The notes: generated by a model from the letters alone, not told the origin. Shown: positions 32 through 5,288, counted from the first letter of the stretch. The stretch is 5,288 nt of DNA from a virus (IMGVR_UViG_2657244940_000001:1-5288); one strand, 5' to 3'. Translations and numbers: made by a program.

Positions 32-77
32 GCGGTACCAGTTTGTACACTTGCTTCCGGCTGGTACCGCTCTTTTT
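32..77 (+). terminator. Candidate intrinsic terminator-like hairpin followed by a T-run
   Basis: GCGGTACCAG at 32-41 is the perfect reverse complement of CTGGTACCGC at 61-70 (10-bp stem, 19-nt loop), followed directly by TCTTTTT at 71-77. The loop is larger than in typical rho-independent terminators, so this is tentative. Confidence 0.3.
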
Positions 78-166
78 ACAAAACAGAGAAGAGCATCACC
101 GGACGACGGGCTCATAACCCAATCCACCCGGGCGGCTGCCACCGCAGGTGTTCTTCTCTGTTTTGT
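78..166. repeat. Long-range perfect 15-bp inverted repeat flanking a GC-rich 59-nt spacer (possible leader RNA structure or protein-binding site)
   Basis: ACAAAACAGAGAAGA at 78-92 is the exact reverse complement of TCTTCTCTGTTTTGT at 152-166, checked by hand. It lies upstream of the rdgC-like start at 201. Confidence 0.4.
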
Positions 167-200
167 GGAGAAACTAATATCTTGTGCAGAGGAAAATAGA

Positions 201-1118
201 ATGAAATTACCAAAATTTCGTAACGCAATTGTGTACCGAGCAACATTACCTAGTATACAGGCTATTGAAGGTCATCTTCTCGAACTCCCTTATTCTGAAA
301 TCGGGGAAACAGAACTTTCACGGTCCTCTTTTGTAGAGAATCCTGTCACTGGTGAACTGGTAACTCCGATATCTGGTGGGTACGCAATGGTAATCCGTCA
401 TGATCAGAAAATAATTCCCCGACATGTCGTCATGAAAGAAGCTAATTCTCGAATCCAAACAATCGAAAATATGTCCGGGAATAAATTAAAGCGTGCCGAA
501 CGACTGACCATTATTGATAACGTACGAGTAGATCTATGCAAACAGGCATTTGTTAAGTCTACGCTGATTCTTGCATTGTACAGCACTGATGAGAAATTAT
601 TGGTAATCAACACAACCAATAAAATAATAGCCGGTATGGTATGCGCAATGCTGATTAAGGTTGTCGGTTCAGTGAAAACAGAAACAATCAACATCAGTGA
701 TATCAAGAATGGACTGACTACACGCCTGAATAACTACATCAATGGTGCAGCCAATGCATTTGAAGGATTCACTGTCGGAAATTATATTCAGCTATCACGC
801 TACGCAGATCAAAAGGAAATTATTCGCTACTCAGCTGAGCATGAGTCAATTCAAAGCGAACTGGCCGATAGCCTTAGTAGTAGTTTCACTGCTGATAAAA
901 TGGAGTTATCCGGTTGCGGTGTGACCTTCATTCTTACCGAAAATTTCCATTTTTCGCGCATCAATACTCAATCTCAGACATTTAATGATGAAGATGATAA
1001 AGCATTCCAGTGGCGTCATCAGACTGGCGCTGACCTTTTCCAATTCAGCAAGGTAGTTAATTTGATGTGTGACCTTCTTTCTTACAAAGAAGATAAAAGC
1101 CAAAATCCAACAACTTAA
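201..1118 (+). CDS. rdgC: RdgC-like recombination-associated protein (305 aa)
   Basis: The track ORF 51..1118 is trimmed to ATG 201, which has AGGA at 190-193 about 7 nt upstream. The resulting N-terminus MKLPKFRNAIVYRATLP resembles the N-terminus of E. coli RdgC (MLWFKNLMVYRL, from memory), and 305 aa is close to RdgC length. Not aligned. The frame is also open upstream of 201 to the window edge. Confidence 0.6.
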   Translation: MKLPKFRNAIVYRATLPSIQAIEGHLLELPYSEIGETELSRSSFVENPVTGELVTPISGGYAMVIRHDQKIIPRHVVMKEANSRIQTIENMSGNKLKRAERLTIIDNVRVDLCKQAFVKSTLILALYSTDEKLLVINTTNKIIAGMVCAMLIKVVGSVKTETINISDIKNGLTTRLNNYINGAANAFEGFTVGNYIQLSRYADQKEIIRYSAEHESIQSELADSLSSSFTADKMELSGCGVTFILTENFHFSRINTQSQTFNDEDDKAFQWRHQTGADLFQFSKVVNLMCDLLSYKEDKSQNPTT

Positions 1119-1122
1119 AAAA

Positions 1123-1166
1123 ATTGCAGCAATCATCCCATGTCAAATGGGCTGGATTGCTGCAAT
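1123..1166. promoter_or_regulatory. Pair of inverted near-palindromic 11-mers (ATTGCAGCAAT / ATTGCTGCAAT) in the rdgC-like/HD intergenic region: operator-like or RNA hairpin
   Basis: ATTGCAGCAAT at 1123-1133 and ATTGCTGCAAT at 1156-1166 are exact reverse complements, and each is itself a palindrome apart from the central base. Centres are about 33 bp apart, roughly three helical turns. An inner palindrome CCCAT-GTCAA-ATGGG lies at 1137-1151. A run of A at 1116-1122 precedes the element, so on the minus strand the hairpin would be followed by a T-run. Confidence 0.4.
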
Positions 1167-1208
1167 CAAAATTCAGAGCGGTGCAGCGCATATAACGTGG
1201 AGAACAAA

Positions 1209-1745
1209 ATGTCATTTATTAAAACTTTTTCCGGGAAGCATTTTTATTATGACAAGATAAATAAAGACGACATCGTGATTAACGATATCGCGGTTTCCCT
1301 TTCAAATATCTGCCGCTTTGCCGGTCATCTTTCTCATTTCTACAGCGTCGCCCAACATGCGGTGCTTTGCAGCCAGCTGGTACCGCAGGAATTTGCTTTT
1401 GAAGCATTAATGCATGATGCAACAGAAGCGTATTGCCAGGACATCCCCGCGCCACTGAAACGCCTTCTTCCTGACTATAAACGGATGGAAGAAAAAATAG
1501 ACGCCGTAATCCGTGAGAAATACGGGTTACCTCCTGTTATGAGCACGCCAGTGAAATATGCCGATCTCATTATGCTGGCAACCGAACGTCGCGATCTCGG
1601 GCTTGATGATGGCTCTTTCTGGCCAGTACTGGAAGGTATCCCGGCAACAGAAATGTTCAAAGTTATTCCACTGGCTCCGAGCCATGCCTACGGGATGTTT
1701 ATGGAGCGCTTTAACGAGTTATCGGAGTTACGCACATGCGCATGA
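1209..1745 (+). CDS. HD-domain phosphohydrolase, YfbR/YfdR-type 5'-(deoxy)nucleotidase family (178 aa)
   Basis: The track ORF 1140..1745 is trimmed to ATG 1209, which has GGAG at 1199-1202 6 nt upstream, whereas ATG 1140 has no SD and sits inside the palindromic element. The protein carries an H...HD...D metal-binding signature (AQHAVL ... LMHDATEAYCQDIPAPLKR) that closely resembles the YfbR motif HDASEVLTGDLPTPVKY recalled from memory. 178 aa matches the size of prophage YfdR-type proteins. Confidence 0.75.
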   Translation: MSFIKTFSGKHFYYDKINKDDIVINDIAVSLSNICRFAGHLSHFYSVAQHAVLCSQLVPQEFAFEALMHDATEAYCQDIPAPLKRLLPDYKRMEEKIDAVIREKYGLPPVMSTPVKYADLIMLATERRDLGLDDGSFWPVLEGIPATEMFKVIPLAPSHAYGMFMERFNELSELRTCA

Positions 1746-2347
1746 ATGTTTTCGAAATGGAAGGGTTTCTTCGCGGGAAATGTGTACCACGAGATCTGAA
1801 AGTGAATGAAACAAATGCTGAATATCTGGTGCGTAAATTTGCTGAAGCGGAGGCCAAGATTTTGGCTCTGTCCGAAGACCAACAGAAAGCGATTGAGTCA
1901 ATTAAGCAGGCTGATGCAGCTGTTAAGTTGGCACACGAGAAGTTTTCGGCGCTGGCGGCGGAGAATGCGGGGCTGAAACACGCAATGGCCGTAACTCTTG
2001 AGCATGTGTCGGTCACGGATGCAGGGCAGGCTGGTGTTGCTGCAATGATTATCAACGATGCCCTGCACCACAGCGAAACTCCAGCCACCGATGATTTCCT
2101 GGCTGAAATTCGTGCGGAAGCACGCAACGAGGGGATTAACTATACCGCAAGCCGTCTTGCTGCTGCTTTCAATCACGGATTTATCAATAAGTCTTTACGT
2201 GAAGTTTTCGACGTTACACGCATGATTCTGTCAGCGAAAGAAGAGTTGGCTAATGAACCACACCCGATTGATGGCCTGTCCGGTGAATATGCGGAGAAAT
2301 CCCTAGAAGAATGGGCGGAACAGATTCGCAAAGGAGGCAACCAGTGA
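1736..2347 (+). CDS. Hypothetical phage protein, Ala/Glu-rich, probably partly coiled-coil (203 aa)
   Basis: Complete ORF. ATG 1736 has GGAG at 1724-1727 8 nt upstream, and the alternative ATG 1742 forms an ATGA overlap with the upstream stop at 1743-1745. No family recognised. Confidence 0.6.
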   Translation: MRMNVFEMEGFLRGKCVPRDLKVNETNAEYLVRKFAEAEAKILALSEDQQKAIESIKQADAAVKLAHEKFSALAAENAGLKHAMAVTLEHVSVTDAGQAGVAAMIINDALHHSETPATDDFLAEIRAEARNEGINYTASRLAAAFNHGFINKSLREVFDVTRMILSAKEELANEPHPIDGLSGEYAEKSLEEWAEQIRKGGNQ

Positions 2348-2568
2348 GCGGAAAAAGAATGACTAACAGAGAGCTTGTTGATGCCGCGATTAAGCTTGCT
2401 GGTGATTTTTATTCAATGATGGGGTACGCGCATCGCCCTGGATTCAAATATTGGGAATCACCGCATCCGCAAGAGCAACTGGTATTTCAAATGGCCTGCC
2501 GTGCTTTTGAGGTTATTCGCGGTTCTGATGTGATGGACGCCGTTGCCGACTTGGAGGATGAAGAGTGA
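2344..2568 (+). CDS. Hypothetical small acidic phage protein (74 aa from GTG 2344, or 69 aa if ATG 2359 is used)
   Basis: Lies in the frame of track ORF 2311..2568. GTG 2344 has AGGAGG at 2332-2337 6 nt upstream and overlaps the upstream stop as GTGA. The in-frame ATG 2359 has only a weak SD. The C-terminus is acidic (DLEDEE). Confidence 0.5.
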   Translation: MSGKRMTNRELVDAAIKLAGDFYSMMGYAHRPGFKYWESPHPQEQLVFQMACRAFEVIRGSDVMDAVADLEDEE

Positions 2569-3122
2569 CCCAAATTAACTATCAGGCACTGCGTGAAAAG
2601 GCAGAGAAAGCAACTAAAGGAAGCTACATCGTAGGGCATACATCTGTTAACCAGCACGGCAATTTAACAGGAGTTTTTGTTTGCCAAAAATGGAAAGGAG
2701 AACCCGGTGGCGTGATTGCGGAATGTCATGTTAACTGCCTGATTGAATCAGATGCTCAGGCTTATGCAAACGCTGAATTCATAGCAGAGGCTAACCCGGC
2801 TACCGTGCTGGCACTGCTGGATGAACAGGAAAGAAACCAGCAATACATCAAACGCCGCGACCAGGAGAACGAGGAGATTGCGCTTACGGTTGGGAAGCTG
2901 CGTGTTGAGCTTGAAGCAGAAAAACAGCGGGCAAAAGTTCTATTTATGGAAAATGCTCGGCTTAAGTCAGGCATAGCCGGTCTGATACACCTCGGTATTC
3001 GATATGCAGATGTTGAGGTCATGAAAATTGCTGGAGATGCCCAGCTTTCTACTCCATGCACTGACAGCATCATAAACAGCATTGCAGCAGGCATTTTCAC
3101 CAAAGAGGGGGCAGCACGATGA
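2565..3122 (+). CDS. Ead/Ea22-like family protein (185 aa)
   Basis: GTG start at 2565 overlaps the upstream stop (GTGA), with GGAGG at 2553-2557 7 nt upstream. The first in-frame ATG is far downstream, so the GTG start is needed. The N-terminal QALREKAEKATKG and the internal motif NAEFIAEANPATVLALLDEQE match the signature I recall for lambdoid Ead/Ea22-like proteins, followed by a charged coiled-coil-like segment. Confidence 0.65.
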   Translation: MTQINYQALREKAEKATKGSYIVGHTSVNQHGNLTGVFVCQKWKGEPGGVIAECHVNCLIESDAQAYANAEFIAEANPATVLALLDEQERNQQYIKRRDQENEEIALTVGKLRVELEAEKQRAKVLFMENARLKSGIAGLIHLGIRYADVEVMKIAGDAQLSTPCTDSIINSIAAGIFTKEGAAR

Positions 3123-3304
3123 GAACACTAGAGGTTCGCGCTGAAGACGTAATCCCTGGTGATGTGCTCATAACATCTAAAGGTCAACAATGTGCGGTTA
3201 AATCTTTTTGGATGGAAAATGACAAAGTGACTCTGTTCGGTACGGATGGTTCCGAAACTGATTATGACTACGACGAATTGCTTGTTATTGAGAGAGCTGC
3301 CTAA
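3119..3304 (+). CDS. Hypothetical small phage protein (61 aa)
   Basis: ATG 3119 overlaps the upstream stop (ATGA), with AGAGGGGG at 3104-3110 upstream. Complete ORF, no family recognised. Confidence 0.5.
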   Translation: MRTLEVRAEDVIPGDVLITSKGQQCAVKSFWMENDKVTLFGTDGSETDYDYDELLVIERAA

Positions 3305-3891
3305 TGACCACCTTTACCAAAGAACAGTTAATCTCCCATGCACGCGAAAGCGTTAGTTATCTGGAAAACTTGAAAGGACGTGTTAGCAAAGAAGGTGCGG
3401 ACTGCAAAGTTGTTATTGAGATGGTTGCACGAGATCTAAAACTGGCACGAATTGCACTGGCCTCGCTTGAGGCAAAGCCGGTGGCGTGGAAGGTAACCTT
3501 CACGCAAATTGACCGTGAATATAACACGTTCACTGGTATGTATTCTGACAAAGCAGAAGTCGAACGGTGGGTGCGGCTGCATAAAGCATGTAATTTTCGG
3601 GCAGATATAACACCGCTTTATACCGCCCAGCCAGTGCCGGTAACTCCGGATGCCTGGATAAGCTGTAGTGAGCGAATGCCAGAAATGGGAGAGCGACAAT
3701 GCTATGTGTTAGCTGCTGACTTTAAAAACAACTACCCACCAAACATCCCCAACACTCAGGTCGGCGTATATGGCGACTGGTTTAATGATGGCAAGCCCAC
3801 TTGGGATGACGGTGATGGCGAAGACCTGTATCTCAAGGAGGTAACCCACTGGATGCCGCTGCCAGAACCGCCGCAGGAGGTGAATCAATGA
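3304..3891 (+). CDS. DUF551-domain phage protein (195 aa)
   Basis: ATG 3304 overlaps the upstream TAA (TAATG). The C-terminal region (W-x-C-x-ERMPE ... THWMPLPEPP) matches the signature I recall for the prophage DUF551 family. The N-terminal half is unassigned. Confidence 0.65.
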   Translation: MTTFTKEQLISHARESVSYLENLKGRVSKEGADCKVVIEMVARDLKLARIALASLEAKPVAWKVTFTQIDREYNTFTGMYSDKAEVERWVRLHKACNFRADITPLYTAQPVPVTPDAWISCSERMPEMGERQCYVLAADFKNNYPPNIPNTQVGVYGDWFNDGKPTWDDGDGEDLYLKEVTHWMPLPEPPQEVNQ

Positions 3892-3971
3892 GCTGGCCTG
3901 ATGCAATCGTAACTCTGGGGATGGTATTCGCAGTAGCGTTTGTTGTGTACTCGATTTGTCGATGGGGATAA
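3888..3971 (+). CDS. Small hydrophobic single-pass membrane peptide (27 aa: MSWPDAIVTLGMVFAVAFVVYSICRWG), not in the ORF track
   Basis: ATG 3888 overlaps the upstream stop (ATGA 3888-3891), with AGGAGG at 3875-3880 7 nt upstream. Hand translation runs to TAA at 3969-3971 and contains an 18-residue hydrophobic stretch followed by R-W-G. Confidence 0.45.
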   Translation: MSWPDAIVTLGMVFAVAFVVYSICRWG

Positions 3972-3975
3972 CCAC

Positions 3976-4218
3976 ATGTTCGCTTTGATTCAACGCGGGC
4001 AGATATACACCGATAGTGCTGGCTACCCGATAAAAATTGTTCACTGCATAAACAACACTGTGTTGTACAGAAGAATGGATGGGCGAACACAGTCAGTAAA
4101 AATAAACGATTTCAATGAACTGTTTGAACGGATTGATCACCAGGAATACCGACAAATTCTGGCAGAAACAGAGCAGGAAGCTCATCTGAAAAAATTACGG
4201 GCCATGAAAAGGAAGTAA
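3976..4218 (+). CDS. Hypothetical small phage protein, possibly DUF4222-like (80 aa)
   Basis: The track ORF 3940..4218 is trimmed to ATG 3976, which has GGGGA at 3964-3968 upstream, because the 3940 start would overlap the preceding small ORF without an SD. The DUF4222 resemblance is weak recall only. Confidence 0.5.
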   Translation: MFALIQRGQIYTDSAGYPIKIVHCINNTVLYRRMDGRTQSVKINDFNELFERIDHQEYRQILAETEQEAHLKKLRAMKRK

Positions 4219-4221
4219 ACA

Positions 4222-4368
4222 ATGAATAAAGCATTTGAACAATGGGTCCACCAGCGTTACGGCAATCGCTATGACCTGACACGAGATGTTGACGGTTTCT
4301 ACTGTCGTGAAATTGTGAAACGAATGTTTGAAGTGTGGTGCCACTGCCGTGGGCTGAGTGTTGTGTGA
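4222..4368 (+). CDS. Small Cys/His-containing protein (48 aa: MNKAFEQWVHQRYGNRYDLTRDVDGFYCREIVKRMFEVWCHCRGLSVV), not in the ORF track
   Basis: ATG 4222 lies 4 nt after the upstream stop, with AAGGAAG at 4210-4215 upstream. Hand translation runs to TGA at 4366-4368. It fills the gap before the xis-like gene. Residues C28, C40, H41 and C42 could form a small metal-binding site (speculative). Confidence 0.4.
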   Translation: MNKAFEQWVHQRYGNRYDLTRDVDGFYCREIVKRMFEVWCHCRGLSVV

Positions 4369-4376
4369 GGTAATGC

Positions 4377-4613
4377 ATGGGCAATGTGATTCAACTGGCT
4401 CCCAATGAATGGGTTTGTGAAAGCGTTCTAATCGCAATTACCGGGCTCAAACCAGGCACAATTCTTCGGGCCCGGAAAGAATGCTGGATGGTTGGAAGAG
4501 AGTATATTCACGTATCACCAGACGGTAATCCAAAGCCTTCCAGTGAATGTATGTATAACAGAAAAGCAATAGATGCCTGGGTCGCTTCAATGAAAAACAA
4601 ACAACCTGGGTGA
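4377..4613 (+). CDS. xis: Excisionase-like / AlpA-family HTH DNA-binding protein (78 aa)
   Basis: ATG 4377 has GAGG at 4367-4370 6 nt upstream. It sits immediately upstream of the integrase in the same orientation. The segment IAITGLKPGTILRARKE resembles the AlpA/excisionase HTH motif (ITGLSRSTIYR), and the NEW...W pattern resembles putative prophage excisionases (recall). Confidence 0.55.
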   Translation: MGNVIQLAPNEWVCESVLIAITGLKPGTILRARKECWMVGREYIHVSPDGNPKPSSECMYNRKAIDAWVASMKNKQPG

Positions 4614-4668
4614 TTTAATATCATGAAATATGTAAGCTCGTATCGCTCTTGGGCGTCTGGAGGTATCG

Positions 4669-5288
4669 ATGGATAAAGTCAAATATCCAACAGGCGTCGA
4701 AAACCACGGCGGCACATTACGCATCTGGTTTAATTTTAAAGGTAAACGTGTCAGGGAAAATCTTGGTGTCCCTGACACTGCCAAGAACAGGAAGATCGCC
4801 GGGGAACTGCGGACATCAGTATGTTTTGCCATCCGCACAGGAAGCTTTGATTATGCTGCACAGTTCCCTGACTCCCCCAACCTTCAGGCTTTTGGGGTAA
4901 GTAAAAAAGAAATTACGGTGAAGGAACTTGAAGAAAAGTGGCTGGATCTGAAACGAATGGAAATCTCTGCAAATGCATTCAATCGCTATGAATCCGTTGC
5001 AAGAACGATGGTTTCGAAAATTGGAGGCAGTAGACTGGTGTCATCGGTAACCAAAGAGGAATTGCTGTATATCAGGAAAGATTTGCTAACCGGGTATCAG
5101 AATTCAACGAAAAACAAAGCAGCAGCAAAAGGACGGAGCGTCGTTACTGTAAATTATTACATGACGACAATCGCTGGAATGTTTCAGTTTGCTGCAGATC
5201 ACGGTTACTTAGAAGCAAATCCCTTTCAGGGAATTAAGCCTCTTAAAAGAGCCAGGGCAGAGCCAGATCCGCTAACTCGTGACGAATT
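4669..5288 (+). CDS. int: Tyrosine-type phage integrase, N-terminal ~206 aa (partial, continues past the window end)
   Basis: ATG 4669 has GGAGG at 4659-4663 5 nt upstream. I translated the frame by hand to position 5286 with no stop (MDKVKYPTGVENHGGTLRIWFNFKGKRVRENLGV...). This N-terminal pattern resembles the arm-binding N-termini of enterobacterial cryptic-prophage integrases (recall). It is missing from the ORF track because no stop falls inside the window. Confidence 0.8.
   Translation, partial: MDKVKYPTGVENHGGTLRIWFNFKGKRVRENLGVPDTAKNRKIAGELRTSVCFAIRTGSFDYAAQFPDSPNLQAFGVSKKEITVKELEEKWLDLKRMEISANAFNRYESVARTMVSKIGGSRLVSSVTKEELLYIRKDLLTGYQNSTKNKAAAKGRSVVTVNYYMTTIAGMFQFAADHGYLEANPFQGIKPLKRARAEPDPLTRDE

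Follow-up and report, generated by a model that had tools for sequence, protein, structure and literature searches.

Does a row of small overlapping genes in a phage early operon encode one functional system, or is it a row of separately acquired parts? The question is raised by the viral DNA IMGVR_UViG_2657244940_000001:1-5288 (5,288 nucleotides, nt; hereafter the window, meaning the whole stretch that was analysed), in which six consecutive genes on the plus strand, here named g1 to g6, each overlap the gene before. A first-pass annotation had taken them for a translationally coupled chain at 1736-3976, co-expressed in stoichiometric amounts and of a kind in which anti-defence or host-takeover functions tend to be found. 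The genes are g1 (1736-2347), coding for an EaE-family protein of 203 amino acids (aa) with a YfdS-type N-terminus; g2 (2344-2568), coding for a member of a small Enterobacteriaceae phage family, of 74 aa from GTG 2344 or 69 aa from ATG 2359; g3 (2565-3122), coding for an Ead/Ea22-family protein of 185 aa; g4 (3119-3304), coding for a very acidic 61-aa protein of a narrow family; g5 (3304-3891), coding for a modular 195-aa protein with a C-terminal DUF551; and g6 (3888-3971), coding for a hydrophobic single-span peptide of 27 aa. These lengths agree with the first-pass annotation. Our analysis showed the genes and their sub-domains to be modules that shuffle independently, and not a co-inherited six-part set. 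We consider it highly probable that the region is the accessory segment, of the ea or exo-xis type, of the early-left, PL-type operon in a yecE-integrated Escherichia coli lambdoid prophage.

Co-inheritance and mosaicism of the six genes

We searched 5,426 complete E. coli genomes for the six-gene block, scoring it as present when 80% of the block was found, and detected it in none of them (0/5,426). The single genes were of very unequal prevalence: full-length g1, g2, g3, g4 and g5 were found in 19, 156, 58, 157 and 0 genomes, respectively, and partial matches in up to 3,093. When approx. 335 IMG/VR loci were retrieved by using each of the proteins as a seed, all six genes stood together on only one short contig. 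The neighbours varied from locus to locus. Counted over unique contexts, g1 was found upstream of g2 in 7/59 and a gene unrelated to the window in 48/59; downstream of g2 an Ead-like gene followed in 24/59 and another gene in 35/59. Genes of the g3 type were followed by g4 in 1-2 of 18 contexts and lacked it in 16, and g2 and g4 never occurred together in 50 and 17 contexts with 2.5-kb flanks. Thus the co-occurrence analysis contradicted the proposed set, with a single exception concerning g4 that is described below. Of the two observations that the first-pass annotation had named as speaking against a unit, homologs occurring singly and in unrelated contexts, the first was made, as the alleles assort independently; the contexts, on the other hand, are related, and in lambdoid phages or phage-plasmids alike they always lie between recombination genes and xis-int.

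The megablast matches of the window were E. coli lambdoid prophages inserted next to yecE-yecN-cmoA-cmoB, and this arrangement of genes was seen in many E. coli assemblies. At least 24 contigs had the exact g5 protein together with the gene order of the window, with xis and int intact alongside, and upstream of rdgC these contigs differed in their repressor/cro modules (L339-L346). The operon would run in the order repressor, rdgC, yfdR, g1, g2, g3, g4, g5, g6, DUF4222, orf48, xis and int. In the E. coli prophage L346 a P22-like N-cIII-kil-abc2 module takes the place of rdgC-yfdR-g1; in full this P22/lambda-like module reads N-Nmad5-cIII-kil-...-Abc2 (anti-RecBCD)-DUF2737. From a g2-sized ORF (open reading frame) to int (968-5044) the genes of L346 have the same sizes and positions as those of the window; the g5 product is identical, and the remaining genes were compared by size and position alone. 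We concluded that L346 is a clean case of module replacement at the g1/g2 junction.

Exchange was also seen inside the genes. Positions 1736-3105 of the window, covering g1-g3, share 99% DNA identity with O157/O103 prophages and with phage Lys8385Vzw, and the similarity ends 14 nt before g4, inside the end of g3; the other mosaic breakpoints of g3 lie near 2766-2777 and 2907-2924. PHROG 368 combines an Ead N-terminus with a g1-type C-terminus, and PHROG 60 combines Ead with a g5-type body. Ea22 genes have been described as mosaic, with portable C-terminal domains (CTDs) that include DUF551, and with acidic CTDs (PMC10834534). The chain was also considered as a fissioned Ea22-DUF551 fusion gene, of which PHROG 60 and 368 hold fused forms; this was rejected because every ORF has its own conserved start and Shine-Dalgarno (SD) sequence and the ORFs occur separately in many genomes.

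Parts of the chain were found on plasmids as well. The order g2-Ead-g4-DUF551 recurs on 111-kb plasmids, and in complete E. coli genomes 98/166 of the places of g2 and 124/159 of those of g4 were on plasmids. The plasmids carrying g2 or g4 look like phage-plasmids. On the 111-kb plasmid pR9-658-1 (L468), which has this order, ISEcp1-blaCTX-M-15 lies inside the DUF551 gene.

Non-random pairs within the chain

Some of the local synteny was not random, and this is a point against modules that shuffle freely. A protein with a g3-like C-terminal part (g3 residues ~70/105-185) preceded g4 in 21/22 contexts and a DUF551-type gene followed it in ~20/22, and the plasmid order given above recurs on replicons of phage-plasmid size. 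Directly upstream of g1 lies yfdR (1209-1745, plus strand), which codes for an HD-domain 5'-deoxynucleotidase (HD hydrolase) with 98% identity to YfdR of the K-12 prophage CPS-53 and a match to PHROG 318 (E=1.7e-109); in the IMG/VR loci it was followed by g1 or another YfdS-headed gene in 34/34 contexts. There may be small functional pairs within the chain, g4 acting with the C-terminal part of g3 and/or with g5, and yfdR acting with g1 or g5 as an inhibitor of replication initiation in the manner of YfdR with YfdS or YfdT, while the rest would be passengers. In CPS-53 YfdR binds DnaA, and overexpressed YfdQ and YfdR inhibit initiation at oriC together with YfdS or YfdT, so that YfdR needs one of these two plus YfdQ (PMC4776307); yfdQ is absent here. 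The association of g4 is one-sided, as most g3-type genes lack it, and its left boundary at 3105, 14 nt upstream and inside g3, is what would be expected of a cassette bearing its own SD. In these contexts g4 behaves as a cassette placed behind an Ea22-like gene. A conserved order with varying alleles is, moreover, the general rule in lambdoid genomes and does not necessarily imply an interaction. We therefore regard functional pairs as rather unlikely.

Gene junctions and translation signals

The junction geometry bore out that the genes are co-directional and tightly packed, and all six stop/start overlaps were found at the coordinates that the first-pass annotation had given. The stop codon of yfdR (1743-1745) and the ATG of g1 at 1736 form a 10-nt overlap, and an in-frame ATG at 1742 would give the ATGA form (-4). 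The junctions that follow are GTGA at 2344 (g1/g2), GTGA at 2565 (g2/g3), ATGA at 3119 (g3/g4), TAATG at 3302-3306 (g4/g5) and ATGA at 3888 (g5/g6). From yfdR/g1 to g5/g6 the overlaps are -10 (or -4), -4, -4, -4, -1 and -4, and stop and start overlap at every one of them. The limits of the chain at 1736-3976 were arbitrary as a set of six genes: yfdR overlaps g1, and the packed genes continue from g6 over DUF4222 and orf48 to xis with gaps of +4, +3 and +8 nt.

Each gene had also been credited with its own SD. This was confirmed for g2, g3, g4 and g6, where predicted pairing with the anti-SD was strong (-11.6 kcal/mol for g2 at 2344, -9.3 for g3, -11.1 for g4 and -11.6 for g6), so that these starts rank among the best 1-3% of all start-like codons of the window. 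The energy was moderate for g1 (-6.1 kcal/mol) and weak for g5 (-4.7 kcal/mol, a value equalled by 20% of the start-like codons in the window). Promoter-like or terminator-like sites inside the chain were not above shuffle expectation, no Rfam match was detected in the window including the chain, and a repeat search gave no meaningful internal repeats in the chain. The lack of Rfam matches and of an excess of internal promoters or terminators fits a single polycistronic transcript.

The genes of the chain are probably transcribed together, and their translation is probably coupled where they overlap. Coupling is a reasonable expectation because it was strict in 13/14 overlapping pairs tested (Huber et al. 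2019, PMC6728339). The whole stretch would be made as one long early message after induction or infection, and a ribosome ending one gene would restart at the overlapping ATGA, GTGA or TAATG start of the next. Strong internal SDs would assist at g2, g3, g4 and g6. Reliance mostly on reinitiation would be expected for g5 and, less markedly, for g1. A caution is that transcript and coupling are both predicted from the sequence alone.

Overlapping co-directional pairs make up ~15% across prokaryotes (PMC6728339) and often encode subunits of heteromeric complexes (PMC6728339, PMC10666635). Six overlaps in a row are unusual against this bacterial baseline, yet they are the norm in lambdoid early operons. 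In the opposite, replication-side early operon of the same prophage type 9/10 junctions overlap, and this operon encodes Rha-type regulators, a methyltransferase, a LexA-like protein and RusA. The ea region of P22 has five overlaps in succession, and the yfdR/yfdS/yfdT junctions of CPS-53 are -10 and -1. The overlaps of the opposite operon and the run in P22 argue that such a chain is the mark of a phage operon and not of a multi-subunit machine.

A recurrent cassette at the g1/g2 junction

The 20-mer AAAGGAGGCAACCAGTGAGC at the g1/g2 junction (2330-2349, plus strand) recurs in IMG/VR loci. It comprises the codons K-G-G-N-Q-stop that end the upstream gene, an AGGAGG SD and the GTG with which the downstream gene starts, and its conservation extends to the left to ~2318 (2318-2349). 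An unbiased exact-match scan of IMG/VR found it in at least 120 stretches; the loci that carry it are L347-L425 and many of L005-L338, and several phages have two copies. In the seeded loci the cassette had 82 unique contexts, in 50 of which neither flank was like the window; these flank classes were assigned from ungapped identity, where indels may hide similarity, and the conclusion is based on BLAST-clustered flanks. Clustered in this way, 72 unique contexts among the matches listed gave at least 10 left and at least 13 right families in 21 combinations.

The upstream proteins, otherwise unrelated, all end in ...[FI]A[AE][QE][LI]RKGGNQ-stop. Downstream there is usually an Ead gene whose product begins with V-S-[KEN]-I-[DN]-Y-Q-x-L-R-E, and g2 is one of several alternatives. 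The invariance of K-G-G-N-Q is partly a product of the exact-match search. At the Ala codons -10 and -9 all four synonymous codons are used, and this synonymous variation argues that in part of the tail it is the peptide that is conserved.

Junction cassettes of ~30 nt, clearest in the form ...[FI]A[AE]Q[LI]RKGGNQ-stop/AGGAGG/GTG (2318-2349), might be selected plug-in linkers, with the chain as a cassette array and its cargo, e.g. the strongly conserved g2 and the plasmid-enriched g4, as possible host-takeover or anti-defence effectors. We put this forward tentatively and with some doubt. In our main interpretation the junctions would serve as short homology linkers, and a promoterless gene swapped in would gain transcription and coupled translation at once. 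A linker role would explain why each gene ends in an overlap bearing the translation signals of the next gene. Modular exchange is the classical view of lambdoid evolution. If the plug-in reading is true, the cassettes would be a homologous-recombination counterpart of integron cassette sites, and any promoterless accessory gene with flanking cassettes would be exchangeable between lambdoid phages and phage-plasmids and be transcribed from PL. Two considerations count against a linker role: the role is proposed from the distribution of the cassette, and the conservation could reflect a constraint on translation signals together with shared ancestry of the C-terminal tails. The data quantify the reuse of an SD/start cassette between unrelated genes, a possibly useful by-product that bears on the long-standing question of precise module exchange at gene boundaries.

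The chain as a functional unit

If the six genes formed one functional unit, their products would be made in fixed ratio and act together as an anti-defence or host-takeover system. With this would agree that overlapping pairs are often translationally coupled and often code for complex subunits, that the operon of P22 carries ral, abc1/abc2, kil and gene 17 just upstream, and that g4 has retained its neighbours, upstream a C-terminal part of the g3 type and downstream a DUF551 gene. The five soluble products (g1-g5) are also all acidic (isoelectric point, pI, 4.2-5.9), and many anti-defence proteins are acidic. Stoichiometric co-expression of a six-protein unit was nevertheless not borne out. 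The overlaps are generic and occur in the same pattern in operons of unrelated routine functions, the block is missing from the complete genomes, its neighbours vary, the cassette joins unrelated genes, and g1, g3 and g5 are mosaic.

Nor was a similarity to a known defence-system component or a solved structure detected. The sequences of g1, g3 and g5 gave only noise against all Protein Data Bank (PDB) chains, PADLOC, whose models are defence-system and not anti-defence proteins, matched none of the proteins, and NCBIfam gave nothing beyond noise. Searches with the structural models of g2 and g5 against PDB and BFVD gave no informative fold match, the PDB matches of g2 being at noise level. 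Structure prediction and fold searches had been suggested as a check of the unit; for g2 and g5 they returned no function. The statement that no biochemical function is assigned to the six proteins stood against Pfam, PHROG and NCBIfam. We concluded that a six-part system is improbable, and we would warn against inferring a multi-subunit system from successive ATGA/GTGA overlaps in a lambdoid early operon.

It is hardly credible that the block is the decaying cargo of a cryptic prophage, with ORFs unexpressed or unselected and overlaps as mere leftovers: several homologous Ead and DUF551 genes are flagged as incomplete pseudogenes by the Prokaryotic Genome Annotation Pipeline (PGAP) and the K-12 homologues lie in the cryptic prophage CPS-53, but the ORFs of the window are all on one strand and intact with starts and SDs, the identical block stands beside intact xis and int in the contigs described above, the g1-g3 proteins share 96-99.5% identity with their counterparts in Escherichia phage Lys8385Vzw, whose record is that of a complete phage genome, g2 has 19 invariant alignment columns across genera, and g6 shows third-position-biased change with 17/20 frames intact. 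The PGAP tag 'incomplete; missing C-terminus' was found on mosaic Ead/Ea22 and DUF551 genes at L001 9736-11399, L002 5527-5961 and L468 2433-2723, 4236-4640 and 5140-5388. Translation of L002 5527-5961 reads through without stops, and the counterparts in the window are intact. The flags probably arise from variable, mosaic C-termini that are compared with an unlike reference protein.

A working model for the gene products

Ea22 favours lysogeny in lambda, phi24B and P27 and is tetrameric (PMC7093339, PMC10834534). By analogy with Ea22 and with the CPS-53 proteins, the products of g1-g6 may, with an even chance at best, be dispensable and mostly acidic proteins that each act on their own to modulate host replication and the choice between lysis and lysogeny. 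Judged from their relatives, they would most likely act singly or in small local pairs. One or more of the proteins may have an anti-defence role.

Several facts weigh against this model. The C-terminal part of g3 is unrelated to the CTD of lambda Ea22, which weakens the functional analogy, and g1 shares with YfdS only the 45 N-terminal residues, without DUF551. The effect of YfdQRST needed overexpression and yfdQ (PMC4776307), and this prophage has rdgC in the position of yfdQ. Neither a preprint on prophage Pas small RNAs nor a paper on co-transfer in lambdoid phages deals with this region.

As a six-gene chain the locus adds little, its proteins being already in Pfam and PHROGs as function-less families. 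For the roles of Ea22, EaE and DUF551 in the biology of Shiga toxin (Stx) phages the window is no more tractable than existing model phages. The linker reading of the cassette and the small conserved genes g2, g4 and g6 are the only parts worth follow-up.

Properties of the individual genes

g1 is acidic (pI 5.2) with 16% Ala. Its residues 1-45 are 89% identical to K-12 CPS-53 YfdS, and beyond these the two proteins are unrelated. Residues 69-200 match residues 39-162 of P22 EaE (BLASTP, 35% over 134 aa, E=3.6e-21), and tblastn matched annotated eaE genes of the phages P22, L and SE1. By pairwise similarity, and by its place just downstream of recombination/nucleotide-metabolism genes, g1 belongs to the EaE family of P22. 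It matched PHROGs 614, 14548 and 368. Its 806 representative relatives, proteins of 71-361 aa, fell on three separate segments (~residues 2-83, 57-140 and 110-203), and its C-terminal module is fused to Ead N-termini in other phages. No Pfam domain was found in g1, hence no DUF551, and the single NCBIfam match was sub-threshold (fructokinase, 18.4 bits vs a cutoff of 450) and was taken as noise. We also considered g1 or g5 as an orthologue of YfdS and rejected this, as g1 shares residues 1-45 only and DUF551 sits on g5.

g2 is acidic (pI 4.9), and its family comprises 87 clusters from Enterobacteriaceae phages. The AlphaFold2 (AF2) model is a confident three-helix fold with a predicted local distance difference test score (pLDDT) of 91, whose sole convincing fold match was an uncharacterised Acinetobacter phage protein. 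The start codon is ambiguous. PGAP picks ATG 2359, and most other callers GTG 2344, which has a strong SD, overlaps the stop of g1 and serves elsewhere as the start codon of Ead genes behind the same cassette. M6, encoded by ATG 2359, hardly varies, and the five residues before it are variable.

The Ead/Ea22 and DUF551 assignments of the first-pass annotation were upheld, both g3 and g5 scoring well above the Pfam cutoffs. g3 matched PF13935 (Ead_Ea22) with 121.6 bits (E=4.8e-35; cutoff 27), the match covering positions 2-139 of the 139 in the profile. It consists of the conserved N-terminal domain, a helical middle and the C-terminal part unlike lambda Ea22; its residues 83-122 are 78% identical to P22 EaD. 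When g3 was compared by phmmer with all PDB chains, among them that of the lambda Ea22 CTD (8DSX), nothing was found at E<=1; because Ea22 CTDs vary (PMC10834534), the missing 8DSX match does not exclude membership. Opposite g3, an antisense ORF of 113 aa (2762-3103, minus strand) matched PHROG 13760 (E=5.8e-29), the only antisense ORF with a PHROG match. PHROG 13760 is most likely a family of spurious antisense calls and not a real gene.

g4, with a pI of 4.2, is represented by 18 clusters among 5.8 billion proteins. It matched PHROG 15283, and no domain match was found.

g5 has more than 7,500 relatives. Residues 117-191 matched PF04448 (DUF551) with 73.1 bits vs a cutoff of 22. This C-terminal domain follows a YfdT/EaA-type helical head (MTTFTKEQ...IALASLEAKPVA) and a small alpha/beta middle module. 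In an alignment of relatives the DUF551 motifs W-I-S-C-S-x-x-M-P and H-W-M-P-L-P-E-P-P are conserved, as are the hinges IALASLEAEPVA, PVTPDGWISCSERMP and HWMPLPEPPQEV, with variable inserts between them. The pLDDT of the AF2 model was ~80-88 for residues 1-105 and ~50 for DUF551. The N-terminus resembles YfdT and P22 EaA and the C-terminus resembles that of EaA, the match to EaA being weak at both ends.

g6 is very likely a real gene. The fetched loci held 20 nucleotide variants. In 17 of these the frame of 27 codons is intact and closed by a stop, and in the three remaining, rare ones the stop is lost or an internal one is present. All variants start with ATG and nearly all have a GGAGG-type SD. 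Changes by codon position numbered 225 at the third position vs 112 and 77. The peptides follow the pattern M-x-W-P-[DE]-A, a hydrophobic stretch and Y-S-I-C-R-W-G, with a Kyte-Doolittle hydropathy of 2.45 over residues 7-23. g6 was found in 89 phage records, including 933W and VT2-Sakai, and in the IMG/VR contexts it was always followed by DUF4222. It is not called by PGAP or the other pipelines whose annotations were compared. In 933W (L466 2501-2578) g6 directly follows the DUF551-type gene, and the hokW/sokW toxin-antisense module comes just downstream of g6. A widespread gene for a 27-aa membrane peptide that annotation pipelines miss systematically is a possibly useful by-product of this study.

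Flanking genes and RNA hairpins

Upstream of yfdR the ORF set of the window contains rdgC (201-1118). Downstream of g6 lie the DUF4222 gene (3976-4218), the 48-codon orf48 (4222-4368), the excisionase gene xis (4377-4613) and the integrase gene, which starts at 4669; all are on the plus strand. Matches to PF13973, PF06806/DUF1233 and Phage_integrase cover the stretch from DUF4222 to the integrase, and orf48 and xis were assigned from the profile matches and annotation of this downstream stretch.

A predicted RNA hairpin at 73-171 (plus strand), just upstream of the SD and start (ATG 201) of rdgC, has a ~25-bp stem and a branched loop. Its minimum free energy (MFE) is -49.2 kcal/mol (z = -7.2 vs shuffles), and it had no Rfam match and lacks a U-tract. 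Candidate roles are those of an RNase III site, a processing/attenuation element or an antitermination-type RNA of an early-left operon without N. A second hairpin, with a 12-bp stem (TTGCAGCAATC... / ...GATTGCTGCAA), lies at 1123-1166 (plus strand; MFE -25.3 kcal/mol, z = -5.35) in the 90-nt spacer between rdgC and yfdR, the sole sizeable intergenic gap in the operon.

Comparison with known systems

Accessory regions of the ea / exo-xis type are already known from P22, lambda, Stx phages and CPS-53. Like the coupled pairs studied by Huber et al. 2019 (PMC6728339), the genes of the window have co-directional -4/-1 overlaps, mostly with an SD inside the upstream gene. Unlike the complex-subunit pairs of PMC10666635, the partners in the window are interchangeable, and their coupling is predicted.

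With the exo-xis region of lambda and Stx phages the window shares a clear Ead_Ea22 member, g3, placed between recombination genes and xis. The differences are that in the window DUF551 is on the separate protein g5 and not fused to Ead, and that the CTD of g3 has no detectable similarity to 8DSX. The pro-lysogenic effect and the tetramer are from lambda/Stx alleles, whereas g3 is known as a sequence.

CPS-53 (yfdQ-yfdR-yfdS-yfdT) shares with the window the junction ATGCGCATGA (-10) between yfdR and the next gene and the first 45 residues of the next protein. YfdS carries DUF551, as does g5, and the N-terminus of YfdT resembles that of g5. After residue 45, however, g1 turns to an EaE-type body, rdgC replaces yfdQ, and in the window the YfdS-type head is separated from the DUF551 domain by four additional genes.

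The ea region of P22 (eaE-orf45-eaF-eaD-eaI-eaA-eaG-eaC) lies between abc2 and xis in the same early-left position as the window, with ral, abc1/abc2, kil and gene 17 in the same operon. The window differs in that eaF, eaG and eaC are missing and yfdR and rdgC stand upstream instead of erf/abc. The alleles are diverged or replaced, g1 having its YfdS-type N-terminus, and for g2 and g4 no P22 counterpart was found by BLASTP. The order of families is nevertheless that of P22: EaE (g1), EaD (g3) and DUF551 with head and tail resembling EaA (g5); small ORFs are interspersed, and the overlaps are likewise -4. Even the tail of P22 EaE, ...AAQLRKGVQS-stop, can be set beside that of g1, ...AEQIRKGGNQ-stop.

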